From an uncultured Clostridia bacterium (GTDB lineage: Bacteria; Bacillota; Clostridia; Christensenellales; CAG-917), in contig CAKQUV010000002.1 of NCBI GenBank assembly GCA_934277615.1, forward strand, positions 98,855 to 162,854: a stretch of DNA of 64,000 nt, read 5' to 3'. The notes beneath the pieces were generated by a model. It was not told the DNA's origin. It made no database searches and saw nothing but the letters and a program-made list of their open reading frames with translations. Shown here in pieces: positions 6,604 through 51,574 of the stretch. The translations under genes were made by a program, and so were the position numbers. Numbering within the stretch: the first letter of the stretch is position 1; every line of letters starts with the position of its first letter.

Positions 6604-6953
6604 ATTAGACCTCCTTGGGGTTATGCTGACATTATAGAGGAAAACCGCACGCTTTGCAATACCTTTTTTCATTTTTGCCACTGAATAGTGGAATTATAAG
6701 CAAATTTTAAGAATTGCCGCCGAGTATTTATACAAATGTATCGATATTTTGGCACTGATTTGTCAAAAATATAGACAGGAAAGGGAAAATGCAAATCCGA
6801 GCGGCGCAATAACACCGTGAGAACGTATCGAAACCTGCGGCAAAACAGTCAAAACGGCAGGGAAGAGCTTAAAAAGCGCGTTTCAAAATCGCAAACTTGT
6901 CTTGTATTTGACAATATAGGATATTTGTATAGTTTACTCACTAACTTTTGGTA

Positions 6954-6982
6954 TTTACAACGCACGCGAGGTTTGATATAAT
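6954..6982 (+). promoter_or_regulatory. sigma-70-type promoter for the aminotransferase gene
   Basis: TTTACA (6954-6959), 17-nt spacer, extended -10 TGaTATAAT (6974-6982). Confidence 0.5.
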
Positions 6983-7017
6983 TTTAGTAATAAAAAACAT
7001 CTTTTCGGAGGTAAATT

Positions 7018-8640
7018 ATGGCAAACGGCTACGGCATTTCCAAATGGGAAGACGCAAAGCAAATCAATAAAGAATTGAAGAATTTGACAGACCAACCGAT
7101 TTATTGTGTGTCTGAGGAAAATCTCAAACAAATTTTGGAACATTTCAACACCAAATGTGCAAAATCCAAAGAGATTACCACTGAGGCGAAGAAGTATATC
7201 CCGGGCGGCGTTCAACACAACCTCGCTTTCAACTTCCCCTTCCCGATGTGTATGGAAAAAGCCGAAGGCGCATATTTGTACGACCGTGACGGCAATCAAT
7301 ACATTGACTTCCTTCAAGCAGGCGGCCCGACGATTTTGGGCAGCAATTTCCCTGCGGTAAAAGAAAAAGTGTTTGAACTTCTCAACACTTGCGGTCCTGT
7401 AACAGGTCTTTTCCATGAAGGCGAACTTCTCCTTGCAAAGAAGATTAGCGAATTGATGCCCGCTTGCGAAATGTTCCGTATGCTCGGCTCCGGTACAGAG
7501 TCCGTTATGGCGGCAATCCGTGTGGCACGTTGCGCAACCAAGAAAAAACGCATCATCAAAGTCGGCGGCGCATATCACGGCTGGTCGGATCAAATGGTTT
7601 ACGGTCTTAAGATTCCCGGAAGCAGACAATTCCTCGAATCTCACGGCATCCCCGGCTCCTACAAGACCACGGACGAAGTCAGACCAAACGACCTCGGCAT
7701 GCTCGAAGCAATGCTCAAACGCAACGTCGCAAAGGGCGGCACGGCAGCTGTTATCGTAGAACCTGTCGGTCCCGAATCCGGTACTCGTCCAATCGATTTC
7801 GATTACAACGAGAAAGCAAGAATTCTTGCCAAGAAATACGGCGCATTGTTCATCTTCGACGAAGTTGTTACAGGCTTCAGAGTCGGCGTACACGGCGCGG
7901 CAGGCTACTTCTTCGGCGACAAATACAAAGTTGACGATACTCCCGTATTTATCGACGGCAAGCCGTGGATCATCCAAGACAAGAAACTCGTTGACGGCAA
8001 AGTCGTCAAATTCAAACGCCAAGGCACGGGCAGAGATATGTATCCCGACCTCACGGTATTCGGCAAGATCGTTGCAGGCGGCTATCCGGCAGCAGGCGGC
8101 GTAGGCGGCAAGAGGGAATACGTCAGCCTTATGGCGGCAGGTCTTGCAGGTATGGGCAAGAAAGCATACGTCGGCGGAACGCTCGCTGCAAACCCGCTCA
8201 GCTCTTATGCAGGATACGTTGCGATTTGCGAAATCGAGAAGAACAACGCTTGCGAAATCGCAGGTCGTGCAGGCGATCGCCTCGCAGCAGGTCTTAAACA
8301 ACTCATCAAGAAGTACAATCTCCCGTACGTCGTTTACAACCAAGGCTCCATCGTTCACCTCGAGTGCACGGGCGCAATGAGTTATGACTTCAGCAATATG
8401 TGCTTGCTCGGATCCGTCATCCCGATGCTCAAGAAGAAACCCGAAATGCTCCGCAGAAAGGTTGCTATGGAACAAATGGGCGCGGCATATATGGCAAACG
8501 GTATCGTTACGCTCGCAGGCAGCCGCCTTTACACCTCAATGGCAGACACTGACGAAATCATCGACGAGGCACTCCGCCGCTTCGACAACGTGTTCAAGAA
8601 CGTTGTAAAATGCGAGGACGCATCCAGATTTGAAAAATAA
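7018..8640 (+). CDS. class-III PLP-dependent aminotransferase / glutamate-1-semialdehyde aminomutase-like
   Basis: GGAYHGW, FIFDEVVTGFR and a Schiff-base lysine context PDLTVFGKIVAGGYP. GGAGG SD. Carries a ~45-aa insertion (KYKVDDTPVFIDGKPWIIQDKKLVDGKVVKFKRQGTGRDMY) before the lysine motif. Confidence 0.85.
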   Translation: MANGYGISKWEDAKQINKELKNLTDQPIYCVSEENLKQILEHFNTKCAKSKEITTEAKKYIPGGVQHNLAFNFPFPMCMEKAEGAYLYDRDGNQYIDFLQAGGPTILGSNFPAVKEKVFELLNTCGPVTGLFHEGELLLAKKISELMPACEMFRMLGSGTESVMAAIRVARCATKKKRIIKVGGAYHGWSDQMVYGLKIPGSRQFLESHGIPGSYKTTDEVRPNDLGMLEAMLKRNVAKGGTAAVIVEPVGPESGTRPIDFDYNEKARILAKKYGALFIFDEVVTGFRVGVHGAAGYFFGDKYKVDDTPVFIDGKPWIIQDKKLVDGKVVKFKRQGTGRDMYPDLTVFGKIVAGGYPAAGGVGGKREYVSLMAAGLAGMGKKAYVGGTLAANPLSSYAGYVAICEIEKNNACEIAGRAGDRLAAGLKQLIKKYNLPYVVYNQGSIVHLECTGAMSYDFSNMCLLGSVIPMLKKKPEMLRRKVAMEQMGAAYMANGIVTLAGSRLYTSMADTDEIIDEALRRFDNVFKNVVKCEDASRFEK

Positions 8641-8650
8641 TCGATAAAGC

Positions 8651-8681
8651 GTTGGCGCACGATTGTGCGCCAACAATTTTA
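8651..8681 (+). terminator. weak hairpin / possible attenuating terminator
   Basis: GTTGGCGCAC gatt GTGCGCCAAC followed by AATTTTAT. Confidence 0.4.
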
Positions 8682-8764
8682 TGTTTGCTTTTTTTGCAAT
8701 GTTTGGTATAATATTGCAAAAGGCAATAATATATCATTGCAATAAGCAGTTTTAGGAGAATAGT

Positions 8765-10015
8765 ATGAACGAATTGATTGTTTCCAACATCAACAAATAC
8801 GCCCGTATGCTTGCGGAAAAGAAGTATTTGCAAAGCGGTTTCATAGCGGTCAAGGAAGACGACGGCATCGTCATCACAAAGCCGAGAATAGATTATTCCG
8901 ACGTCAAAGAAGACGACGTCGTGTTTGTCAACGACAAGAATATCGAAAGCTTGGAAGGCAACTTCCGCGCTGCAGCGGTGATTTTGTTCTGCGCAATCCG
9001 CCAAGACAAAAAGGCAGGAGCGGCGGCAATCGTCGATAGCGACAGCACTGTTGAGTTTTCAAAGAAGAGAAAGACCATTATGCCTATCCTCGACGATTTG
9101 GCGCAAGTTTGCGGCATATCTATCAAATGCGCAGGCAAGAACGTAGCATCCGACGTCGTAGCGGCACTCAGCGGACAACGCAACGTATGCTTGCTTCCCG
9201 AGGCAGGCGCAGTCGTTACGGGGCGCACGCTTGACGAAGTGTTTACGGCAACTCTCGTTCTCGACAAGGCTTGCAACATCGAGCTTTTGACGGAAAGCAA
9301 GGGCGGCACTCAACACATGGGCGCGCTTGACGCTTTGCTCGAGCATGTCGTGTTCAAACTCAAATATTCCAAGACCAACCAAAAACAACAAAAAGCGGCA
9401 GAGAGCGGTGAGGCTGCGCAAGCAGAGGAAAAACAATCCGCAGTCGTCAGCGACGAGGACAAGAAGATAGCGCAAGACATCAAGGACGCAGGCGAGAGAT
9501 TGCTTGACGAAAACCTTGTTCAAGGCACTTGGGGCAACATCGCAGTCCGCATTGACGACCAATATATGTTCGCAACTCCGTCCGGCATCGATTACGTCAT
9601 GCTCCAACCCGAGCAAATGGCAAAGGTCAATATGGAAACCCTTGAGTGGACAGGCACCAACAAAGCCACCAGCGAAAAGGGCATCCATGCGATTTTGATG
9701 AAGAACGACAAGAACATCAACGCAACAATTCACACTCATCCGTTCTACGGCTGCGCGCTTGCGGCAATGTGCAAATCCTTGCCCGTTCCCGAAAAATATC
9801 AAGACGTTCTCGGCAAAGAGATTCCTTGCGCCAAAGCAGCGCTTCCCGGCACAGGCTCACTCGTTAAAAACGTTGCGGCGGCAATCGGCGACGCGCCCGC
9901 ATGCTTTATGGGACATCACGGCGTAATCGTAAGAGGCAAAGACCTTGACGACGCATTTGCAATCTGCAGAGCTCTCGAGGACGCTTGCCGCGATTACCTC
10001 ACGGAAGAGAACTAA
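8765..10015 (+). CDS. tandem class II aldolase/adducin-domain protein (degenerate N-domain plus catalytic C-domain)
   Basis: The C-terminal half has SEKGIH, HTHPFYG and GHHGVIVRG, i.e. the Zn-binding His set of FucA/AraD/MtnB-type enzymes. The N-terminal half has the same fold pattern but lacks the His triad. An acidic/Q-rich linker joins them. AGGAGA SD. Confidence 0.75.
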   Translation: MNELIVSNINKYARMLAEKKYLQSGFIAVKEDDGIVITKPRIDYSDVKEDDVVFVNDKNIESLEGNFRAAAVILFCAIRQDKKAGAAAIVDSDSTVEFSKKRKTIMPILDDLAQVCGISIKCAGKNVASDVVAALSGQRNVCLLPEAGAVVTGRTLDEVFTATLVLDKACNIELLTESKGGTQHMGALDALLEHVVFKLKYSKTNQKQQKAAESGEAAQAEEKQSAVVSDEDKKIAQDIKDAGERLLDENLVQGTWGNIAVRIDDQYMFATPSGIDYVMLQPEQMAKVNMETLEWTGTNKATSEKGIHAILMKNDKNINATIHTHPFYGCALAAMCKSLPVPEKYQDVLGKEIPCAKAALPGTGSLVKNVAAAIGDAPACFMGHHGVIVRGKDLDDAFAICRALEDACRDYLTEEN

Positions 10016-10031
10016 TTGTAAAACAGTTAAT

Positions 10032-10060
10032 AAAAAAAGCACACTTCGGTGTGCTTTTTT
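10032..10060. terminator. bidirectional intrinsic terminator
   Basis: A7 - GCACAC ttcg GTGTGC - T6. Confidence 0.8.
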
Positions 10061-10064
10061 ATTA

Positions 10065-10170
10065 GTGATATCGTGCTTCGCACGGTGATATTTGCGCAAA
10101 GCGCAAGTGATATTTTTTGCTTACGCAAAAAGTGATATTGCACCTGCGGTGCAGTTATGGAATATTCCAT
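10065..10170 (-). repeat. hairpin/ATATCAC array A (4 units plus GGAATATTCC palindrome)
   Basis: On the minus strand: ATGGAATATTCCAT, then TGCACCgcaGGTGCA-ATATCAC, TTTTTGCgtaaGCAAAAA-ATATCAC, TTGCGCtttGCGCAA-ATATCAC, CGTGCgaaGCACG-ATATCAC, then the terminator. Same architecture as 20599-20707 and 23741-23863. Confidence 0.8.
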
Positions 10171-10411
10171 TAGTGCACGCAGTGCGCCTAACGTTGCTCG
10201 TAGGCAGGCGGAGCCGTAGTTTATAACTCCACGAAGAATAATTGTGGGCATCAACTGTCTATCCGAGCAACCGCCGAGCCGCCTCAAGGTTGCGAGACCT
10301 TACGCAAAAAGCAAGGCTCCGCTTGCTTTTTTGTAGGACGTTTGCGCCTAAATATGTGTCAAGTTATCTCGTAGAGATAAGTGACACGTGTTTAGCATTC
10401 GGCGCAAGCTG

Positions 10412-11302
10412 TTATTCAACGCTTTGATTGTCTTCAACTATTTCTTCAACAGTTTCCTTGATTTCTTCTTCAACGTTTTCTTCTGCTTGAGTTTCCTCTT
10501 GAGTGTTTTCTGTGTTTTCTTCTTTCACGTCGCTGTCTTGATTGATTTCAACGTCGGAATTTGCAATTTCTTCAAGGTGCGCGGTTTCTTCTTGAGCTTT
10601 TTGTTTTTTCTTCTCACGTCTTATCTGGAGCACTGCAAACAAAGCACAAAGTGCGATACCTACAAACAAATATCCCGATGCGATATTGAATGACGGCATT
10701 GCAAAGCCGAGAATGACTGAAAGTACAACGATAATAGCAATCGGGAATACCGCGAGTTTGATGTTCTTCACAACGTATTTTCCGCCGAGCGAGCCGAAGA
10801 GCGCGTAAACGACGCAAGTAAATGCCGGGGTAATCCAAGGTGTATTGCGTATTGCCGTTTCAACGTTGCTAAGTGCAAGAATAAGGACAAATACTGCAAT
10901 GATAACCGTTGTTACAAGCGTGCTTGTCGCAACGGAGAGGGTGGAGACCACTTCGTTTTCTTCCGTGCCGAGTTTCGTACCGCAAATCTCTTGCGCTTTT
11001 ACAACGCAGGGAATTTTGAGATTGGACAGGTTGCCCGTGATAAAGGCAAGATATGCGCTGTTTACGCCAAGCATTGGCGAATAAATCACAGGTTCAACCA
11101 CACCGGAAAGGAAGTTGATTATAAACGGAATCAAAACCGCACTCGATCCCATAACCGTCATATCGGGTTTCACGTCGTAATAAAGACAAATTGTCGTTGG
11201 TACGGCGAAGAAGATTGCAAGTGCAAAAAACATCCAAATTTTGCCTATGATGTGCGATTTGAGGTTATAATCCATAGAAACTTTAACTCTTTCTTTTGCC
11301 AT
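10412..11302 (-). CDS. polytopic membrane protein, unknown function, acidic C-terminal tail
   Basis: About 6-7 predicted TM helices. GAGGTG SD. Starts 11 nt after the upstream membrane gene. The last ~65 aa are E/D/Q/N-rich. Confidence 0.7.
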   Translation of the reverse strand: MAKERVKVSMDYNLKSHIIGKIWMFFALAIFFAVPTTICLYYDVKPDMTVMGSSAVLIPFIINFLSGVVEPVIYSPMLGVNSAYLAFITGNLSNLKIPCVVKAQEICGTKLGTEENEVVSTLSVATSTLVTTVIIAVFVLILALSNVETAIRNTPWITPAFTCVVYALFGSLGGKYVVKNIKLAVFPIAIIVVLSVILGFAMPSFNIASGYLFVGIALCALFAVLQIRREKKKQKAQEETAHLEEIANSDVEINQDSDVKEENTENTQEETQAEENVEEEIKETVEEIVEDNQSVE

Positions 11303-12326: not shown

Positions 12327-12417
12327 CGGAAGTAGTAGGGTATTGCGCGTTAAGTGCCGTGCGAACGTGGAGTGTCGGCGGACGAAGGGTTTTCCCGCGG
12401 TGCAATGCTCACTCCAG
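12327..12417 (+). promoter_or_regulatory. THF (tetrahydrofolate) riboswitch, THF-I / folT-motif class
   Basis: GGAAGUAGUAGGGUAUUGCGCGUUAAGUGCCGUGCGAACGUGGAGUGUCGGCGGACGAAGGGUUUUCCCGCGGUGCAAUGCUCACUCC. It shares the recalled hallmark blocks GUAG, GCGUUAAGUG, GUGUCG, ACGAAG, GCGGUG.AAU and a closing CUCC/GGA P1. It sits directly upstream of folC. Confidence 0.75.
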
Positions 12418-12470
12418 ACTTCACATATTACCGAAAGGTTTTTTGCGAGTACTTCCCGAGGAGGTGCTTT

Positions 12471-23740: not shown

Positions 23741-23863
23741 ATGGAATAATCCACAACTGCGGCAACGCCGCAATATCACTTTTTGCGAAAGCAAAAAATA
23801 TCACTTGCGCAAAGCGCAAATATCACTGCGCCCACGGCGCAATATCACTCGCACGAAGTGCGA
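23741..23863 (+). repeat. hairpin/ATATCAC array C (5 hairpins, 4 linkers)
   Basis: ATGGAATAATCCAC, then TGCGGCaacGCCGCA-ATATCAC(23773), TTTTGCgaaaGCAAAA-ATATCAC(23798), TTGCGCaaaGCGCAA-ATATCAC(23820), TGCGCCcacGGCGCA-ATATCAC(23842), TCGCACgaaGTGCGA. Ends 9 nt before the ATG of the radical SAM gene. Confidence 0.85.
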
Positions 23864-23872
23864 ACATACATC

Positions 23873-24994
23873 ATGAACATCAGCATAATGCTAAAACCCG
23901 CGTCGTCAAATTGCAATTTGCGATGCAAATATTGTTTCTATCACTCGCTGTCGGAATGTCGCGAGATGCCTTCGCGCGGAATTATGAGCGAGGACACCCT
24001 GCGCGATGTTCTCAAAAAGGCGTTTGATTTTGCGGGTAACGACCACGTTATGCTGTCCTTTCAAGGCGGCGAACCTTTGCTTGCAGGCAAGGAGTTTTTT
24101 GTCAAACTTCACCAAATCGTGCGCGAACTCAACGTCCGCCGTGCGCCCGTGCATATAGGAGTGCAAACCAACGGAACGCTCATCGACGAGGAGTGGTGCG
24201 CCATATTCAAACGTGGCGGATATCTTATCGGACTTTCGCTTGACGGCGACGAAGAGGCAAACCGTCTTCGTATTGACGTAGGCGGGCAACCAACCTTTGA
24301 GCGAGTGTTGCAAAGTGCCAAATTATTGCAAAAATACGGCGTGGAATTCAATATTCTCACGGTGCTCACCAAGCAAGTGGCAAATAGGATAGACGATATA
24401 TACGCTTTTTTCAAAAAGCAAGGTTTTAAGCATTTGCAGTTTATCCCTATGCTCAAACCTCTTCGTCTTGACGAGAGCGGACAGCCTATATCCACCGAAA
24501 CGTACTCAGAGCCTTTTCCGAGCGAGAGCGAAAACTATTCGATGTCAAGCGACGATTATTTCGAGTTCTTGCAAAAGTGCTTTGCGCAGTACACCAAGGA
24601 TTTTGCAAGGGGCAGTTATACATCAATACGCCAGTTTGACAATTTCGTGCGCCTCGCGCATTTTGAAAACGCCGAGCAATGCGGTATGGAAGGGCATTGT
24701 TGCCACCAATTCGTCATCGAAGGCGACGGAGAGGTCTATCCGTGCGATTTCTATTGCATAGACTGCTACGATATGGGCAATATCAAGGGCACCGACTTTT
24801 TCGAGCTATCCAAGCACCCGATTGCCGTCAAGTTTATCAAAGAGAGTATGATAGTAGAGGACAAGTGCAAGCAATGCAGTTTCTTTGCGATGTGCAAAAA
24901 CGGTTGCAAGCGCGAGCGTATCGACATCGACAAATGCTCCGCCTACAAGAGGTTTTTCCCCCTTGCGTTGCCCTATATGAAACGCATGCGCTAA
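23873..24994 (+). CDS. radical SAM/SPASM enzyme, anaerobic sulfatase-maturating enzyme (anSME)-like
   Basis: KPASSNCNLRCKYCFY (CX3CX2C) near the N-terminus and C-terminal SPASM cysteines (CKQCSFFAMCKNGC). The track N-terminal extension (23783) reads through the repeat array and is rejected. No SD. Confidence 0.85.
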   Translation: MNISIMLKPASSNCNLRCKYCFYHSLSECREMPSRGIMSEDTLRDVLKKAFDFAGNDHVMLSFQGGEPLLAGKEFFVKLHQIVRELNVRRAPVHIGVQTNGTLIDEEWCAIFKRGGYLIGLSLDGDEEANRLRIDVGGQPTFERVLQSAKLLQKYGVEFNILTVLTKQVANRIDDIYAFFKKQGFKHLQFIPMLKPLRLDESGQPISTETYSEPFPSESENYSMSSDDYFEFLQKCFAQYTKDFARGSYTSIRQFDNFVRLAHFENAEQCGMEGHCCHQFVIEGDGEVYPCDFYCIDCYDMGNIKGTDFFELSKHPIAVKFIKESMIVEDKCKQCSFFAMCKNGCKRERIDIDKCSAYKRFFPLALPYMKRMR

Positions 24995-42952: not shown

Positions 42953-42981
42953 TTGATTTTTTCTTATAAACTATGTATAAT
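42953..42981 (+). promoter_or_regulatory. promoter of the acidic-protein genes
   Basis: TTGATT (42953-42958), 17-nt spacer, TATAAT (42976-42981). The ATG of the track ORF (42973) overlaps the -10 box. Confidence 0.5.
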
Positions 42982-43011
42982 CTATTAGATACTAAATCGC
43001 GGAGGAATATT

Positions 43012-44679
43012 GTGGAATTTTTTGAAAAGGCATTCGCTTGGCTTGCAGACGTATCGTCCAAATTGCCTAAAATAGATTTTCAAATATTTTTCATCGTCGT
43101 AGCGGCGGTGCTTTTCGGGTTGGGTATCGTATTTGCGTTTACGTATCTCGGCTCAAAGAGTTTCAAACTTATCAAGGCTAGCAAGAAAATTCAAAAATAC
43201 CTCGAAGGCGTCGACGCCGTCGATGACGACAACGTGAGCGATTTTACAGCGCATTGTTTCTCTGCAAAAGCGCCTCAAGCGTTGCGCGACAGTTGGGTGC
43301 AATACCTCGGCGTGCGCTTTGGATATCCCAGCGATATCGTCAGCGACAAGAACGTCTATGACAAGACGGTCAAAAAGAACAAGGACTATCGCGCGGGCAT
43401 CTACATTTGCGTATCGCTTATTTTGCTTGCGGTGTTTGCGTTTTGGGGATACGGCACTCTCGATAAGACAGCCATCGGCGCAGTGCATTTCGTGAGTCTT
43501 GTGATTATCGGATTGATGTATCTTTTCCTCATCCTCATCAATCGTGCTCAGAACAAGCGTTGCCTCGAAGCTTTTGACGCAATGCAAGAAGACCTTGACG
43601 CAAAGGTGAATTTGCAAGTCGAGAAAAACTATGCCACGGATTCCTCTCCGCTTTCCGAACTTGCGGGTATGGTGGAAGAGATTATCGCACGCAACACGTC
43701 CAAGGCAATCGACATCGACGAAGAGCCCGAAGAGGTGGCGGAGCCCACTCCCATCGAGGCTTTGATAGAACAAGAAGAGAAAGGCGAGAGCGTTGAGGAA
43801 GAAACTTCTGTCGACGAGGCAGACGAGCCGGTTTCCGAGGATAAGGAAGAAGAGTCTGTGGATGAAGAAGCGGAACCCACGGAAGAAACTTCCGTAGAAG
43901 AAGCCGAAGAGGTTGAAGAAACCCCCGTTGACGCTGTCGAAGAGAATACGGAAGAGGTTGCGGACGAGGAAACGGACGAAGTTGTCGAAACCGAGCCTGT
44001 CGAAGAAGCCGTAAAAGAAACCTCGGAGGAAACCGAAGAAGAAAAGGCTGACGACGAAAACGTTGAAGAAACCATAGAGGAAAGCACCGAAGAGGAAGGA
44101 CTCCAAGAAGCGCAAGAAGACGCTGCGGAAGAGAACGCCGAAGAACAACCTCTCAAAGAAGAACAAGAGGATACTCTTGACGAGGCAGAGGCTCAAGAGG
44201 AAGTTGAAGCCGAGGAAATCGAGGAAGAAGTCCGAGAGGATGAAAACTCGGTCGAAACGAAAGAAGAGCCTATTGAAGAAATCGCAGACGATGACGTTCA
44301 GGAGGACGTAACAGACGAGTCCGAAGAGGTTGAAGAACAATCCGAAGAAGAAGTAGCCGACGAAGGCGACGCAGAAGCCGAAGAAGTCGAGGACGATTCA
44401 CAAGAGGACAACTCAGAAGAGAAAGCCGAAGAGGAGCCCGAGGTCGTTTACGTCGTAGACGGCGAGGATGAGGACGAAGAAGTTGTCAAACCTGCAAAAC
44501 TTGTCAAACTTCCCAATCTCGTTGATTATATGCTGACAAAGAATATGCCGAAGGCTATGAAGATTCAAATCGCAGGAATGCTCATCGGCACGTACAAGAA
44601 GTTTGAAAACAGCAAGGAAGACCGCAAAATCGTTGTGCAATGTCTGACGAAAGTTATGCGCGACTTGCAAGCAAACTGA
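43012..44679 (+). CDS. membrane-anchored, extremely acidic protein with conserved C-terminal domain (paralog 1)
   Basis: GTG 43012 lies 5 nt after GGAGGA. Three N-terminal TM helices, ~260 aa of E/D-rich low complexity, then a ~75-aa C-terminal domain shared with 44759-45511. Confidence 0.65.
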   Translation: MEFFEKAFAWLADVSSKLPKIDFQIFFIVVAAVLFGLGIVFAFTYLGSKSFKLIKASKKIQKYLEGVDAVDDDNVSDFTAHCFSAKAPQALRDSWVQYLGVRFGYPSDIVSDKNVYDKTVKKNKDYRAGIYICVSLILLAVFAFWGYGTLDKTAIGAVHFVSLVIIGLMYLFLILINRAQNKRCLEAFDAMQEDLDAKVNLQVEKNYATDSSPLSELAGMVEEIIARNTSKAIDIDEEPEEVAEPTPIEALIEQEEKGESVEEETSVDEADEPVSEDKEEESVDEEAEPTEETSVEEAEEVEETPVDAVEENTEEVADEETDEVVETEPVEEAVKETSEETEEEKADDENVEETIEESTEEEGLQEAQEDAAEENAEEQPLKEEQEDTLDEAEAQEEVEAEEIEEEVREDENSVETKEEPIEEIADDDVQEDVTDESEEVEEQSEEEVADEGDAEAEEVEDDSQEDNSEEKAEEEPEVVYVVDGEDEDEEVVKPAKLVKLPNLVDYMLTKNMPKAMKIQIAGMLIGTYKKFENSKEDRKIVVQCLTKVMRDLQAN

Positions 44680-44758: not shown

Positions 44759-45511
44759 ATGTTTGGAAAGAAGAAAAAACAGGCAAAACTTGAACAAGAG
44801 CAACGCGAAAAAGAACAACGCGAGTTGGAACTTGCTCAACAACAAGCGGCGCAAAGAGCGGCAGAGGCTGCAAAAGAGGAAGAAAACAACGGCAAGATTT
44901 ATCTTGAAAGCGAAATCATCGACGACGATGAGGACGACAATTCTCTTCCCAAAGAGTATGAGTCTATCGCTTATATTTTGAAACAAGAAACGGGCGAAGA
45001 TTTGCTTGCGCAACCCGTTGACGACGACGTGGAAGAAACTCCGCTCCAAGAAGTCAAAGAAGAAGTTGCGCCTGTCGAAGAAAAGGCTGAAGAGAAGGTT
45101 GAAGAACCCGTAGCGCAAGAGCCTGTAAAAGAAGAGGCGCCGACCGAAGAGACAGCCGAAGAAGATGTTGAAGAGACCGAAGAAGAGGCAGAAGAAGAAG
45201 TCGAGGAAGAGGCTGACAAAGAGGAAGCTCAAGAAAAGACCGAAATCGCGCCGCAAGAACAAAAAGAAGAAGTGGTGTATATCGTGGACGGTCCGAGCGA
45301 GGACGACGACGAGATTGTTAAACCTGCAAAACTTGTCAAACTCCCCAATCTTGTGGACTACATGCTCTCTCAAAACATGTCCAAACAAATGAAGATAAAC
45401 ATTGCGACGTTGCTCCTTTCCACGTACAACAAGTACAAGGATATCCCTGCGGAAAAGAAGATTATCATCCAATGTATGGCAAAGGTTATGAGATCTCTCA
45501 TTCAAGGCTGA
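44759..45511 (+). CDS. soluble acidic protein with the same conserved C-terminal domain (paralog 2)
   Basis: GGTGAGGA SD. K/E/Q-rich N-terminus, acidic middle, and a C-terminus VVYIVDG..DDDEIVKPAKLVKLPNLVDYMLSQNM.K.MKI.IA..L..TY.K......KKIIIQC..KVMR.L. Confidence 0.65.
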   Translation: MFGKKKKQAKLEQEQREKEQRELELAQQQAAQRAAEAAKEEENNGKIYLESEIIDDDEDDNSLPKEYESIAYILKQETGEDLLAQPVDDDVEETPLQEVKEEVAPVEEKAEEKVEEPVAQEPVKEEAPTEETAEEDVEETEEEAEEEVEEEADKEEAQEKTEIAPQEQKEEVVYIVDGPSEDDDEIVKPAKLVKLPNLVDYMLSQNMSKQMKINIATLLLSTYNKYKDIPAEKKIIIQCMAKVMRSLIQG

Positions 45512-46946: not shown

Positions 46947-49592
46947 ATGGGCAAAAAATACGTTTATCAGTTTGCCGAAGGCAATGCAAAAATGCGTGAA
47001 CTTCTCGGCGGTAAAGGCGCAAACCTCGCAGAAATGACCAACATCGGTCTTCCTGTTCCTTACGGTTTCACGATTACGACGGAAGCTTGCACTCAATATT
47101 ATGAGGACGGCAAACAAATCAACGACGATATCAAAGCGGAAATCATGGAAAATATCGCCAAACTCGAAGAAAAAGCGGGTATGAAATTCGGCGATAAAGA
47201 GAATCCGCTTCTCGTCTCCGTTCGTTCGGGCGCAAGAGCGTCCATGCCCGGTATGATGGACACCATCCTCAACCTCGGTCTCAACGACGACGTGGTTGAA
47301 GTTTTGGCAAAGAAATCCGGCAACGCAAGATGGGCTTGGGACTGCTACAGACGTTTCATCCAAATGTTCTCCGACGTTGTTATGGAAGTCGGCAAAAAAT
47401 ACTTTGAGGCTCTTATCGACGAGCTCAAAGAGAGAAAGGGCGTTACTTACGACGTAGAACTTACCGCAGACGACCTCAAAGAGCTCGCAGGCAAGTTCAA
47501 AGCAGAGTATCAAGAGAAGATCGGCAAACCCTTCCCGTCCGATCCGAAGGAACAACTCTTCGAAGCTATCAAAGCAGTTTTCCGTTCTTGGGACAATCCG
47601 CGCGCAAACATCTATCGTATGGACCACGACATCCCGTACAGCTGGGGTACCGCAGTCAACGTACAAATGATGGCATTCGGCAACATGGGCGACGATTGCG
47701 GCACAGGCGTTGCATTCACACGTAACCCCGCAACCGGCGAACCCGGTCTTATGGGCGAGTTCCTTATGAACGCACAAGGCGAGGACGTCGTCGCAGGTGT
47801 TCGTACCCCGATGCCCATCTCCAAGATGGCTGAGGTTCTTCCGGAAGTCTATGTACAATTCCAAGACGTGTGCAAGATTTTGGAAAACCACTACAGAGAT
47901 ATGCAAGATATGGAGTTCACAATCCAACAAAAGAAACTCTATATGTTGCAAACAAGAAACGGCAAACGTACCGCAGCTGCTGCAATCCGTATCGCATGCG
48001 ACCTCATCGACGAGGGTATGATTACAGAGAAAGAGGCACTTTTGCAAATCGACGCAAAGACTCTCGACATGTTGCTCCACCCGCAATTTGACGCAAAAGC
48101 GCTCAAAGAAGCAGACAAGGCAAACGTGGTCGGCAAAGGTATCGCGGCATCTCCGGGCGCTGCGGCTGGTACAATCGTGTTCACCGCTGAAGACGCAGTC
48201 AAAGAAGGCAAGGCAGGCAAGAAAGTCGTCCTCGTCAGACTCGAAACTTCTCCGGAAGACATCGAAGGCATGAAATATGCACAAGGCATCCTCACCGTTC
48301 GCGGCGGTCAAACCTCTCACGCGGCGGTTGTTGCTCGCGGAATGGGAACCTGCTGCGTTTCCGGTTGCGGCGATATCAAGATGCATGAAGAAGAAAAATA
48401 TTTCGAGCTCGCAGGTAAGACCTTCCACGAGGGCGACGCACTCTCCTTGGACGGCTCCACGGGCAACATCTACGATATCATGATCAAGACTGTTCCGGCA
48501 GACCCCAACAGCGGTTATTTCGGAAGAATCATGAAACTCGCAGACAAATACAAAGCGCTCGGCGTTCGCACAAACGCAGATACGCCTGCTGACGCACAAA
48601 GAGCAGCTGAACTCGGCGCACAAGGCATCGGTCTTGTCCGTACAGAGCATATGTTCTTCGGTCCGGGCAGAATCGACAAGTTCCGTGAGATGATTTGCTC
48701 CGAAACCGTTGAAGAGCGCGTCAAAGCACTCGACGCAATCGAGCCGATGCAACAAGCAGACTTCGAAGGTTTGATGGAAGCTCTCAAGGGCATGCCTGTT
48801 ACCATTCGTTTCTTGGATCCGCCGCTCCACGAGTTCGTCCCCACGGAAGAGAAGGATATCGAGGCTCTCGCAAAAGCAAAAGGCAAATCCGTATCCGAAA
48901 TCAAGATTCTTTGCGACAGCTTGCATGAGTTCAACCCGATGATGGGCCACAGAGGATGCCGTTTGGCAGTTACGTATCCCGAAATCGCGGTTATGCAAAC
49001 CAAAGCGGTTATCAAGGCTGCTATCAACGTCCAAAGACGTCATCCCGATTGGAAAGTCGAGCCTGAAATCATGATTCCGCTCGTCGGCGAAGTCAAAGAA
49101 TTGAAGTATTGCAAGAAGACGGTTGTCGAAACCGCAGACGCAGTCATCAAAGAAAGCGGCGTTGACCTCAAATACGAAGTCGGCACGATGATCGAAATCC
49201 CCAGAGCGGCTCTCACCGCTGACGAAATCGCAAAAGAAGCCGATTTCTTCTGCTTCGGTACAAACGACCTTACCCAAATGACGTTCGGCTTCAGCCGCGA
49301 CGACGCAGGTAAGTTCTTGCCCAGCTACTATCAAGCAAAGATTTACGAATCCGATCCGTTTGCACGTCTTGACACAGTCGGCGTCGGCAAGCTCATGAAG
49401 ATGGCAGTTACGCTCGGCAAGGGCGCAAACAGCAAGTTGCACTGCGGTATCTGCGGTGAACACGGCGGTGATCCTTCTTCCATCGAATTCTGCCACGAAA
49501 TCGGTCTCGATTACGTATCTTGCTCACCGTTCAGAGTACCTATCGCAAGATTGGCAGCTGCACAAGCAAACATCAAGAACCCGAGAAACTAA
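46947..49592 (+). CDS. ppdK: pyruvate, phosphate dikinase
   Basis: 881 aa with GGKGANLAEM, the phospho-His loop GGQTSHAAVVARGMG and a C-terminal PEP-utilizer TIM barrel. AGGAGG SD. Confidence 0.95.
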   Translation: MGKKYVYQFAEGNAKMRELLGGKGANLAEMTNIGLPVPYGFTITTEACTQYYEDGKQINDDIKAEIMENIAKLEEKAGMKFGDKENPLLVSVRSGARASMPGMMDTILNLGLNDDVVEVLAKKSGNARWAWDCYRRFIQMFSDVVMEVGKKYFEALIDELKERKGVTYDVELTADDLKELAGKFKAEYQEKIGKPFPSDPKEQLFEAIKAVFRSWDNPRANIYRMDHDIPYSWGTAVNVQMMAFGNMGDDCGTGVAFTRNPATGEPGLMGEFLMNAQGEDVVAGVRTPMPISKMAEVLPEVYVQFQDVCKILENHYRDMQDMEFTIQQKKLYMLQTRNGKRTAAAAIRIACDLIDEGMITEKEALLQIDAKTLDMLLHPQFDAKALKEADKANVVGKGIAASPGAAAGTIVFTAEDAVKEGKAGKKVVLVRLETSPEDIEGMKYAQGILTVRGGQTSHAAVVARGMGTCCVSGCGDIKMHEEEKYFELAGKTFHEGDALSLDGSTGNIYDIMIKTVPADPNSGYFGRIMKLADKYKALGVRTNADTPADAQRAAELGAQGIGLVRTEHMFFGPGRIDKFREMICSETVEERVKALDAIEPMQQADFEGLMEALKGMPVTIRFLDPPLHEFVPTEEKDIEALAKAKGKSVSEIKILCDSLHEFNPMMGHRGCRLAVTYPEIAVMQTKAVIKAAINVQRRHPDWKVEPEIMIPLVGEVKELKYCKKTVVETADAVIKESGVDLKYEVGTMIEIPRAALTADEIAKEADFFCFGTNDLTQMTFGFSRDDAGKFLPSYYQAKIYESDPFARLDTVGVGKLMKMAVTLGKGANSKLHCGICGEHGGDPSSIEFCHEIGLDYVSCSPFRVPIARLAAAQANIKNPRN

Positions 49593-49610
49593 TCGAATTA
49601 TCGACTTTGA

Positions 49611-49638
49611 AAACAGCCGTTGCAAAACGGCTGTTTTC
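49611..49638 (+). terminator. intrinsic terminator of ppdK
   Basis: AAACAGCCGT tgcaaa ACGGCTGTTT-TC. Confidence 0.8.
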
Positions 49639-49697
49639 ATACCCGAAAGGCGTTGATTGAATGATTGCTACGGCTATTAACGCCGAATTTTGCAAAA

Positions 49698-50471
49698 ATG
49701 GAAAACGAAAATAAATACATTTTTATCTCGCACTCGCACGCCGATTTGGCAAAAGTGAGGCTGGTGCGCAATACGTTTGAGAATAGGGGATATGAGCCGA
49801 TTTTGTTTTATCTCCATTCTTTATCTGACGAAAACGAAATAACGGATTTGATAAAGCGTGAAATCGACGCGCGTCTTTGGTTTTGTCTGTGCGATTCGCA
49901 GAACGCAAGAAAAAGCCGTTGGGTGCAAAGCGAATTGAATTACGTGAAAGAACAGGGCAAAAGAACGCTTGCGACAATAGATCTTGACAAGATTGGTGCG
50001 CTTGGGGTTGCCGAACAATGCAGAATAGTAAATCTGACAGTCGACAGCTTTTCTCGTGCGAATACCGTGTTTTTGTCGTATATGAAAAACTCGGCGGTTG
50101 AGGCTAAAAAGATAGGAATGACTTTGGAAGAATTTGGATTTGACGTGCCGCTGTTGCATATGCATAATCAGCTATTTCAATGTTTTGAAGATAACGTAAT
50201 TGAAAGCAATATTGAGAAATGCGACTACTTTTTTATTGTGATAGGGCAAAATTGCGCAATCAACCATTGGGTTCTTAACGAGTGGTATTTGGCAAGGCAA
50301 TTAGGAAAAATTATCATTCCGATTTTTCTTGACAAAGAAGCACTTTTAAACACGCCCGGAGAGTTGTTGGAGTGGTCATATGTATTGTGGAATTTTGACA
50401 ATCCGATCGAATCGGTAAAAGCGTTGATAAACGTAATACCGATCGGCGATACGCGCCCCGTAAACGATTAA
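49698..50471 (+). CDS. tandem TIR-domain protein (two TIR_2-like domains, no other domain)
   Basis: Domain 1: YIFISHSHADL...WFCLCDSQNARKSRWVQSELNYV. Domain 2: VFLSYMKNS...YFFIVIGQNCAINHWVLNEWYLARQLGKIIIPIFLD. Both keep the (F/L)(I/L)S(H/Y) strand and the W-x-x-x-E motif. First ATG is 49698 (track start 49665 is TTG). No SD. AT-richer than its neighbours. Confidence 0.75.
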   Translation: MENENKYIFISHSHADLAKVRLVRNTFENRGYEPILFYLHSLSDENEITDLIKREIDARLWFCLCDSQNARKSRWVQSELNYVKEQGKRTLATIDLDKIGALGVAEQCRIVNLTVDSFSRANTVFLSYMKNSAVEAKKIGMTLEEFGFDVPLLHMHNQLFQCFEDNVIESNIEKCDYFFIVIGQNCAINHWVLNEWYLARQLGKIIIPIFLDKEALLNTPGELLEWSYVLWNFDNPIESVKALINVIPIGDTRPVND

Positions 50472-50667
50472 TCGTTGACGGCATGGAAAGCGTCGGAATT
50501 GTGTCATAATATCAGGGCATTTGACCTTAAAAGTTACCAAATATTAATCCATAGAGTTGTTATTAATATATATCATCAAATTTAACGCTAAAATAATGCA
50601 CGCGCATACGCACGCACGCATTTATATATTCGGATTGCGCGCCGCGTCTTTCGTTTTTCGGTTGCTC

Positions 50668-50819
50668 GGGGTATTTGCGCTGCCTGAGCGGAAGACAGAC
50701 GAGCGATAAATCCCCAAGACTGAAGAAGAGGAACGATAGGACGCAATAGAGAAATTTTTATCGGTTTATAAAAGACAAAATGTGCGTTATATCGACGGTT
50801 TTCGGGGCGCAAAATACCC
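50668..50819. other. long-range inverted repeat enclosing ~125 nt in an otherwise unexplained 400-nt non-coding region
   Basis: GGGGTATTTGCGC (50668-50680) pairs with GCGCAAAATACCC (50807-50819) with one bulge. An inner pair is CGATAAA (50703-50709) with TTTATCG (50756-50762). No convincing ORF. Confidence 0.35.
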
Positions 50820-50875
50820 ATCGTGTATTTGGTAAAAATTTTTTATTAAAAAAGTAAAATAGGGGCGATTTTCGT

Positions 50876-50905
50876 TTGACAGAGGCAGTTTTTTTTGGAT
50901 ATAAT
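50876..50905 (+). promoter_or_regulatory. xpt promoter
   Basis: TTGACA (50876-50881), 18-nt spacer, TATAAT (50900-50905). Confidence 0.55.
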
Positions 50906-51001
50906 GCCCATATCATTCAAGAGCAAACCAAATCGCAACGCACAACCGACGGGGGAAAAATTACCGTAACGCCACTAAATATTGTGGTAAAGGAGCGCGC
51001 T

Positions 51002-51574
51002 ATGAAGATTTTGGAGGAGCGCATCTTGAGGGACGGAAAAGTCCAGGCGGGCAACGTCCTCAAAGTTGGCGGATTTCTGAATCATCTTATCGACTATCAA
51101 TTGTTGGACGAGATCGGAAAGGAAATTTCTGCGCTCTTTTGCGGGCAAAAAATCACCAAAATTCTGACAATCGAAGCATCGGGTATAGCCATAGCTTGTG
51201 CAGCCGCACACTATGTCTGCGCACCGGTGCTTTTTGCTAAGAAAAGCAAGACCATAAACATATCCTCGGACTGCTACTGCGCCGAGGTTTATTCTTTTAC
51301 GCACCAAGTTTCCAAAATGATTATGGTGGAAAAAAGTTTTCTCACCAAAGACGACAAGGTGCTTATCGTCGATGACTTTTTGGCAAACGGCGCCGCTATA
51401 AACGGGCTTATGAGCCTTGTCGAGCAAGCCGGCGCGGAACTTGTGGGATGTGCAGTCGCAATCGAAAAAGGTTTTCAAGGCGGTGGCGACGAATTGAGAG
51501 CAAAGGGTATAAACGTCCAAAGCCTCGCGCTTATCGATTCTATGGACGACGGAAAAATCACGTTTAGAAACTAA
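51002..51574 (+). CDS. xpt: xanthine phosphoribosyltransferase
   Basis: MKILEERILRDGKV..GNVLKVGGFLNH and the PRPP-binding loop VLIVDDFLANGAA. AAGGAG SD. The track N-terminal extension starts at the -35 box and is rejected. Confidence 0.9.
   Translation: MKILEERILRDGKVQAGNVLKVGGFLNHLIDYQLLDEIGKEISALFCGQKITKILTIEASGIAIACAAAHYVCAPVLFAKKSKTINISSDCYCAEVYSFTHQVSKMIMVEKSFLTKDDKVLIVDDFLANGAAINGLMSLVEQAGAELVGCAVAIEKGFQGGGDELRAKGINVQSLALIDSMDDGKITFRN

Follow-up and report, generated by a model that had tools for sequence, protein, structure and literature searches.

The protein of 257 amino acids (aa) encoded at positions 49698–50471 (forward strand, ATG to TAA) of the DNA analysed here, a 64,000-nucleotide stretch from an uncultured Clostridia bacterium that is referred to below as the window, is built of two consecutive TIR domains and is tentatively read, from sequence and predicted structure, as a self-contained TIR NADase immune module akin to single-gene TIR-like defences. 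Its first domain is nearly invariant throughout the family, whereas the core of the second appears, by comparison with close relatives, to have been exchanged in the window lineage for a deeply divergent allele. The gene follows ppdK and precedes xpt, and its parts, including the core that shares no nucleotide similarity with the three relatives L001, L016 and L017, are located as follows.

49698–50471, forward strand: tandem-TIR gene, 257 aa, with no Shine–Dalgarno (SD) sequence and no consensus promoter upstream.
49698–50060, forward strand: N-terminal compact TIR (aa 1–121), TIR_2 43.7 bits, ThsB_TIR 29.7 bits, carrying the candidate catalytic residue E79.
50061–50468, forward strand: C-terminal TIR (aa 122–257), TIR_2 39.3 bits, aligning to solved TIR NADases and carrying E195.
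50082–50377, forward strand: replaced or hypervariable core of the C-terminal TIR (aa 129–227), 296 nt, GC 0.378, with no nucleotide similarity to L001, L016 or L017.

A reading made earlier from the sequence only had proposed a tandem of TIR_2-like domains with a beta-A strand and a W-x-x-x-E motif in each half, and this assignment is confirmed. The whole protein matches the Pfam family TIR_2 (PF13676) at 6e-22 in two stretches, and the N-terminal and C-terminal halves scanned alone (43.7 and 39.3 bits) both exceed the gathering cut-off of 28 bits. The ThsB_TIR family is matched at 34.3 bits (cut-off 21.2), and the N-terminal half passes by itself; all 15 family members tried matched TIR_2, and all 15 likewise matched ThsB_TIR. 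The beta-A strands (FISHS at aa 9, FLSYM at aa 125) and the W-x-x-x-E motifs (WVQSE at aa 75, WVLNE at aa 191) lie where they had been claimed, with both glutamates present, one per TIR (E79, nt 49932–49934; E195, nt 50280–50282). The two halves share 23% identity (E 1e-6), a degree of similarity that would fit an ancient internal duplication. An AlphaFold2 model based on 15 homologues (mean predicted local distance difference test score 78.7, predicted TM score 0.61) also contains two consecutive alpha/beta units, and a Foldseek comparison with the PDB, whose matches may stem from either domain, returned the TIR domain of SARM1 (TM 0.65–0.67, target-normalised) and the TIR-APAZ protein of SPARTA, as well as the TIR-like N-glycosidases BcmB and DNPH1, all with probability 1.0. 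Among defence models, a PADLOC scan of the protein ranked ThsB first (E 1e-10 to 1e-11), with a weak match to spbK (6.7e-5). The Thoeris models of NCBIfam remained far under their cut-off (16 bits vs 220), and NCBIfam holds no model for a tandem-TIR protein. DUF4062 (PF13271) scored 23.2 bits, under its cut-off of 24.7 and over profile positions 2–51 of 82 only, with weak matches in 4 of the 15 family members. The only cross-match to effectors of the CBASS, Pycsar, SPARTA or Cat1 type was CAP12-PCTIR_TIR (17 bits, below cut-off), and hidden Markov model (HMM) scans detected no SAVED, STING, CARF or APAZ domain, N-terminal extension or secretion-associated domain in the protein.

The exchange of the second-domain core is seen most clearly against L001 (a chicken-gut contig), L016 and L017 ('Christensenella sp. 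UBA767'). These are 86–94% identical to the window at the nucleotide level from ppdK to position 50081, where all detectable similarity is lost, only to resume at 50378; the two flanks of the core are 85–94% identical, and the breakpoints are the same in all three genomes. Over approximately 47051–50081, a stretch that takes in the greater part of ppdK as well as the N part of the TIR gene, identity to L017 is 94%. At the protein level the N part is 90–95% identical to its syntenic orthologues and the core (aa 129–227) 33–34%, while ppdK reaches 97.5% and the ABC ATPase 96% in syntenic relatives; the disparity between N part and core, set against the near-identity of ppdK, constitutes the arms-race signature on which the immune reading draws. 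Substitution rates tell the two regions apart in the same way. For the N part versus orthologues the synonymous rate (dS) is 0.43–0.62 and the nonsynonymous rate (dN) 0.04–0.06, with dN/dS of 0.07–0.15, whereas the core has a dN of 0.70–0.75 and saturated synonymous sites. Type-B cores compared among themselves are under purifying selection (dN/dS 0.19). The saturation of synonymous sites together with the sharp boundaries indicates that a deeply divergent allele was either brought in by recombination or retained for a long time, and not that constraint was merely relaxed. A search for the donor of the type-A core found nothing closer than 40–46% identity in a collection of 5.8 billion proteins, the same species aside, and a metagenome scan returned type-A, type-B and frameshifted alleles only. 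The last of these is represented by L017 (at about position 7190) and by an independent metagenome contig (L096, 662–999), which carry the same frameshift in the N-terminal TIR (LWFWTVRFPERK...); present in two independent assemblies, it is a real pseudogene allele of a sister lineage and not an assembly error.

The same comparison bears on the age of the gene at this site. The suggestion that it forms a small acquired islet overstated its recency, since at least four related genomes carry the TIR gene after ppdK with flanks 86–94% identical at the nucleotide level, so that it is not a recent insertion. The DNA 3' of the gene is different in each genome and the adjacency to xpt is not conserved; the gene thus marks a synteny break, yet is not itself a recent arrival. 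In L028, a more distant member of the Clostridiales, a 36%-identical family member is convergent to the 3' end of ppdK (6884–7780 and 8130–10826), and this flank of ppdK may be a recurrent insertion site. The foreign look of the gene seems to stem mainly from the 296-nt core of the second domain.

Conservation over 113 cluster representatives reveals an equally uneven distribution of constraint between the two domains. More than 20 positions of the N-terminal TIR are at least 95% conserved (mean column entropy 1.65), near-invariant residues being F9, S11, H12, S13, D16, R21, R24, N25, E28, P34, L39, E55, I56, R59, F62, S67, S73, W75, V76 and E79. In the C-terminal TIR conservation is confined to the generic TIR signature (F125, S127, Y128, D132, G176, S189 and E195; entropy 2.78), and E79 is conserved in 100% of representatives as against 89% for E195. 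It is the C-terminal domain of the family profile, nevertheless, that resembles solved TIR NADases, namely Cat1 (8e-8, the best PDB sequence match), AbTir, Caenorhabditis elegans TIR-1/SARM1, plant TIRs and ThsB, and its glutamate aligns with their catalytic glutamate motifs (DWVHKEL in TIR-1/SARM1, SSWCLDEL in plant TIR). The N-terminal domain has one weak PDB relative only (8btn_B), with whose SLWMPWEL motif the N-domain glutamate aligns.

In the favoured reading the invariant N-terminal TIR would be a constrained catalytic or assembly partner, and the variable C-terminal TIR an arms-race surface responsible for trigger recognition or for escape from a phage inhibitor. In TIR NADases the active site arises where two TIR domains meet through the BE interface (PMC12847820), and because such a site needs two TIRs, the tandem may amount to a ready-made pair in one chain. 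Oligomerisation induced by a trigger would activate the pair, the activated protein would cleave NAD+, and the outcome would be either NAD+ depletion (abortive infection) or a cyclic ADP-ribose (cADPR)-type product. Lack of an SD sequence and consensus promoter and the location after a strong terminator might serve to keep a potentially toxic protein at a low level. A sensor-plus-effector pair of this kind had been proposed before, and it fits the near-invariant first domain, the swapped second domain and the lack of a conserved neighbour, a consistency that stops short of proof. A fuller version of the reading, unlikely when all of its elements are taken together, would make the tandem-TIR family a new class of single-polypeptide TIR immune receptor. 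Its N-terminal TIR would be the catalytic or assembly half and its C-terminal TIR an exchangeable recognition or decoy module with a core swapped by recombination, the two would form a composite BE-interface site within the chain, and in some lineages a host cADPR-degrading enzyme of the RyR type would act as an off-switch. By analogy, such an exchangeable C-terminal TIR would be likened to the sensor or integrated-decoy modules of other immune receptors.

The protein had been described as an orphan, a term that holds for partners (none of the usual ones in the 64 kb or in 76 homologous loci, see below) but not for the protein itself. A word-indexed protein search gave only 19 matches, but when 1.84 billion cluster representatives were searched exhaustively with a profile, 4,417 matched at E<=1e-10, and 622 still did so at E<=1e-30. 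The best 150 profile matches are mostly 250–270 aa long and cover profile positions ~8–253 in a single stretch, implying the same two-domain architecture in these relatives. Distribution is patchy: with each GTDB species represented by one genome, the family turned up in 78 of 185,579 species, mostly gut or rumen Clostridia (Christensenellales-like, Oscillospiraceae, Lachnospiraceae), with further carriers in Bacteroidales, Anaerolineales, Verrucomicrobia, Acidobacteria and Actinobacteria, one alphaproteobacterium and one archaeon (Methanobrevibacter). A phage or plasmid origin was considered and rejected, as no relatives were found in IMG/VR, GenBank phages or PLSDB (tblastn for the phages and PLSDB) and BFVD returned only generic folds (TIR-like or deoxyribosyltransferase) at E>1e-3. 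An identical protein is present on 12 contigs, with several different samples among those listed, and a 99% variant also exists. A 194,831-bp Hadza gut contig carries the identical protein, which together with the 94% nucleotide identity to L017 suggests an uncultured, Christensenellales-like gut bacterium as the source of the window. Full-text literature searches for tandem or two-TIR bacterial proteins returned no description of the family, which is apparently undescribed. Separately, five giant proteins (P0023, 2023 aa; P0024, 1773 aa; P0030, 2208 aa; P0097, 1426 aa; P0148, 876 aa) contain 5–7 stretches matching the tandem-TIR profile and are, judged by these matches, multi-TIR repeat proteins.

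Several observations weigh against an immune function. The frameshift in the sister lineage implies that the gene is dispensable. Mobile defence genes would not usually be missing from phage, plasmid and IMG/VR collections, as this family is, and the immediate neighbours of family members are overwhelmingly housekeeping genes, with no sign of defence-island enrichment in a scan not designed for it. The window allele departs from the C-TIR consensus at three positions (D132S, G176D, S189N) while keeping E195, so that its second domain may be catalytically weakened. Finally, the extreme conservation of the N-terminal TIR across phyla could equally mean a housekeeping enzymatic role. Four alternatives are considered.

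Best placed among them, though rather unlikely, is an orphan or split Thoeris sensor, that is, a ThsB-type signal generator made of two fused ThsB-like TIRs with its effector encoded elsewhere in the genome. Its attraction lies in the ranking of ThsB as the best PADLOC defence match and the occurrence of ThsB_TIR in every family member tried. Thoeris loci often contain several thsB genes (10.64898/2025.12.03.692087), and further TIR genes adjoin family members in 13 of the 76 loci. The search for partners, by contrast, speaks against it. The sequence-only reading had found none of the usual partners in the flanking 5 kb, and the same now holds for the entire window and for 76 homologous loci. 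Scanned with PADLOC and Pfam, 44 window open reading frames (ORFs) yielded housekeeping genes (AddAB, ClpB, folate biosynthesis, ABC transporters, ppdK, xpt and a Bmp nucleoside transporter) and no ThsA, SIR2, SLOG, Macro, STING, prokaryotic Argonaute (pAgo) or CD-NTase gene in the 64 kb, nor was any cyclase, pAgo or CRISPR gene found nearby. Signals for a reverse transcriptase were generic or marginal (RTasHel 1.8e-29, one of the helicase-like matches put down to AddA; RT_XIII 6.6e-4). Matches to GajB, Cas4 and mad vanish once six ORFs, those for AddA/AddB and ABC ATPases, are left out; they were therefore rejected and, by inference, assigned to these proteins. A pVip match (3e-19) was attributed, by inference and without a per-protein table, to ORF 23783–24991 (403 aa), the only window ORF with a radical-SAM motif (CxxxCxxC at aa 44 and aa 321); it probably reflects generic radical-SAM similarity and not a viperin.

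For the 76 homologous loci, clustering of every ORF within 5 kb produced no neighbour family present in more than 5 loci apart from the further TIR genes, and HMM scans of 143 immediate neighbours yielded TIR_2 12 times and every other family at most 3 times. No Thoeris-type effector (SIR2, SLOG, Macro) is among the families found in at least two of these 143 neighbours, and no recurrent immunity-like gene was detected in either set. Roughly 30 types of Thoeris effector are now known or predicted; no effector-like family recurs beside the gene in the 76 loci, and no known one is found within the 64-kb window. An operonic TIR–effector pair is moreover what defines Thoeris, which is why the latest survey left stand-alone TIRs out. 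Individual contexts are mostly housekeeping (recO...ruvA, gmk...nadD, spoVT), but one relative (L002) adjoins a type I-C CRISPR-Cas system, and another lies in a tight same-strand island (L036, 14–8027) comprising a type I restriction R subunit, a Gabija-like pair (AAA_15/OLD-TOPRIM and a UvrD helicase), a PLD nuclease, the tandem TIR and an RyR-domain gene. These two loci give some relatives a defence setting, which speaks for the immune reading. Candidate partners beside remote homologues, namely 351-aa and 307-aa genes in L002, 167-aa and 75-aa genes in L012 and a MORN-TIR in L015, were rejected, since they have no window counterpart and, where they do recur, stay inside their own lineages or lie at varying distances.

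The RyR neighbours deserve separate mention, as they constitute a further point in favour both of the immune reading and of a Thoeris sensor. Small genes for RyR domains (PF02026), a domain type linked to the binding or degradation of cADPR, stand beside family members on the same strand, close or overlapping, in four Bacteroidales or Clostridia loci.

L036, 7737–8027, same strand as the TIR gene: RyR gene.
L068, 7904–8209, same strand as the TIR gene: RyR gene.
L085, 8450–9109, same strand as the TIR gene: RyR gene.
L093, 3361–3678, same strand as the TIR gene: RyR gene.

Phage RyR-domain proteins bind, sequester or degrade/cleave 2'/3'cADPR (PMC13232231, 2026 preprint). By analogy, the RyR neighbours hint at a cADPR-type product of the adjacent TIR, and the host-encoded copies might act as off-switches or as sensors. 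The window itself showed no RyR gene.

A non-immune role, in which the protein is a chromosomal NAD+ or nucleotide N-glycosidase or a signalling enzyme and the conserved N domain reflects a fixed substrate, is unlikely. It would account for the 20 or more N-TIR positions conserved at 95% or above from Clostridia to Bacteroidales, Chloroflexi and an archaeon, for the mostly housekeeping neighbours and for the absence from mobile-element collections, and it is in line with Foldseek matches to BcmB, DNPH1 and also viral nucleoside 2-deoxyribosyltransferases, and with the window gene having as neighbours a purine-salvage gene (xpt) and a Bmp-type nucleoside ABC transporter. This last association loses force from the fact that the xpt adjacency is not conserved. 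A patchy occurrence (78 matches in 185,579 species), a pseudogene in the sister lineage, atypical GC and poor translation signals are likewise hard to reconcile with such a role, and a housekeeping enzyme would not be expected to have its second domain exchanged like a cassette between close relatives.

Composition and signals around the start codon lead to a third alternative. With a GC content of 0.408 (window 0.471) the TIR gene is the lowest of 43 window ORFs, confirming the earlier impression, and its third-position GC content (GC3) is 0.465 where 0.52–0.64 is typical of window ORFs. The preference for TTA and ATA codons that had been noted is visible, with TTA at 3 of 28 leucine codons (10.7%, vs 1.9% pooled) and a mild enrichment of ATA (35% vs 23% pooled), but support from codon usage is weak because the counts are small. 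The only other window ORF with a GC3 as low is 10412–11302 (GC 0.425, GC3 0.431), which may be another foreign gene. No SD sequence precedes the ATG, as had been stated (the best match is 3 of 6 positions to AGGAGG), and a consensus scan between ppdK and the TIR ATG found no sigma-70-like promoter. The gene indeed sits directly behind the ppdK terminator, and two hairpins lie in this interval.

49608–49639, forward strand: ppdK terminator hairpin after the ppdK stop, with a 14-bp stem, a GCAA loop and then UUUUC; the same sequence is present in L017.
49649–49684, forward strand: second, weaker hairpin immediately 5' of the TIR start codon, not conserved in L017.

The RNA fold of 49593–49700 has an energy of -35.8 kcal/mol (z-score -5.07). 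It may accordingly be asked whether the gene is a decaying or neutral remnant with a degenerate type-A second domain and barely any expression, as the loss of three C-TIR consensus positions, the lack of SD and promoter behind a strong terminator, and the frameshifted allele of a relative would suggest. This is quite improbable in view of the intact ORF, the identical protein on 12 contigs and its 99% variant, the strong purifying selection on the N part and the retention of E195 and the fold. Last, a host- or competitor-directed TIR effector, Tcp-like or an inter-bacterial toxin, is brought to mind by the gut habitat of the bacterium and by gut bacterial TIR domains that are known NADases making cADPR variants (PMC9092222), but is very improbable given that no N-terminal extension, secretion domain or recurrent immunity-like neighbour was detected and that the family extends to free-living taxa and an archaeon besides gut taxa.

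The preferred reading of a self-contained immune module gains definition from comparison with known systems. Thoeris ThsB resembles the window protein in its TIR_2 and ThsB_TIR matches, with a glutamate at the catalytic position, in its top rank in PADLOC and in the presence of some relatives among several TIR genes, but the window protein has two TIRs in one chain and an unusually conserved first domain, and the operonic effector that defines Thoeris (SIR2-SLOG, Macro-TM, caspase-like, DUF2270 and others) is missing in the window and the 76 loci. Closer in layout are Evangelion (Eva01) and Swarozyc, single-gene DUF4062/TIR-like systems with a conserved N core and a diversified C-terminal sensing part (10.64898/2026.06.25.731849). 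The window gene shares with them the single-gene format, the compact conserved N-terminal core with a diversified C part, and the core motif pattern F(~10)...E(~80) Y, represented by F9, E79 and Y82. It differs in that its core is TIR_2 with DUF4062 below cut-off, in that its variable part is a TIR with its own glutamate whereas their AUX is domain-less, and in its chromosomal location, not being found on plasmids or phages where theirs lie on plasmids or other mobile elements. SpbK of Bacillus subtilis ICEBs1, a TIR abortive-infection protein in which a trigger drives TIR self-association via the BE interface (PMC12847820), is likewise a stand-alone TIR NADase combining sensor and effector in one polypeptide, activity of the window protein being predicted; in SpbK, however, the phage portal is bound by an N-terminal sensor that is not a TIR, whereas both window halves are TIRs, and SpbK resides on a mobile element. 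TIR effectors of CBASS, Pycsar, SPARTA and type III CRISPR systems (TIR-SAVED, TIR-STING, TIR-APAZ, Cat1) share the TIR fold, with Cat1 as a sequence match and the SPARTA TIR as a structural one, but the window protein lacks SAVED, STING, CARF and APAZ domains and the window a cyclase, pAgo or CRISPR. The protein thus belongs, by its profile matches, to the TIR_2/ThsB_TIR class, and would work most like Evangelion/Swarozyc and SpbK while being a member of none of these systems.

The region between the TIR gene and xpt had been described as an unexplained non-coding region of 400 nt that might contribute an RNA component. It measures 531 nt (50472–51001), the xpt start being the ATG at 51002 preceded by AAGGAG, and is largely explained by the promoter and leader of xpt.

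50472–50681, no strand assigned: species-specific non-coding stretch of 210 nt, containing the hairpin 50596–50621, with no Rfam match.
50682–51001, forward strand: xpt upstream region with promoter and ~90-nt leader, 89% identical to L001 4267–4583.

A perfect promoter (TTGACA-18-TATAAT) lies at 50876–50905 upstream of xpt. The TIR gene and xpt of L001, the one relative with xpt nearby, are separated by a MatE gene on the opposite strand, and 50682–51001 aligns at 89% to the L001 DNA lying between that gene and xpt; L016 and L017 lack the gap region, and their DNA 3' of the TIR gene is unrelated to the window. By this alignment the 320 nt of 50682–51001 belong to xpt and not to the TIR gene, and since the shared part stays with xpt in L001 and is missing from the other two genomes, an RNA component finds no support. 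The first 210 nt are matched only in loci with the same 257-aa protein or its 99%-identical variant (L008–L011, L094). Their hairpin (GCACGCGCATACGCACGCACGCAT) is GC-rich with alternating purine and pyrimidine and scores as a minus-strand terminator; a similar motif is located at the equivalent place in L001. Three further proposals for the gap were rejected. Rfam applied to 49400–51200 with an E-value threshold gave only a chance snoRNA match and hence no known RNA or purine riboswitch, tblastn found nothing to suggest a remnant of the L001 MatE, and conservation is not special, as the 89% identity equals that of the flanking genes.

Elsewhere in the window, an Rfam gathering scan over its whole length gave a single match, a tetrahydrofolate (THF) riboswitch at 12329–12422 (62.1 bits), and a folate-biosynthesis cluster comprises GTP cyclohydrolase I, a pterin-binding enzyme, HPPK and FolB. 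Two adjacent paralogues (42973–44679 and 44759–45511) contain long Glu/Asp-rich low-complexity regions and share a conserved C-terminal segment (VKPAKLVKLPNLVDYML...), with no Pfam match on record for either.

Stand-alone TIRs receive no system call from partner-based tools and were discarded by the 2025 systematic survey of bacterial TIR immunity. The tandem-TIR family amounts to hundreds of 50%-identity clusters, with genome matches mainly in uncultured gut and rumen anaerobes that are rarely tested for defence. The 296-nt allele swap constitutes a natural experiment, in which two second-domain cores are placed on the same N-domain. If its function is confirmed, the protein would show how two TIRs in one chain divide their work, and would extend the logic of a conserved core plus a variable module, as found in Evangelion, Swarozyc and SpbK, to a TIR domain as the variable module.

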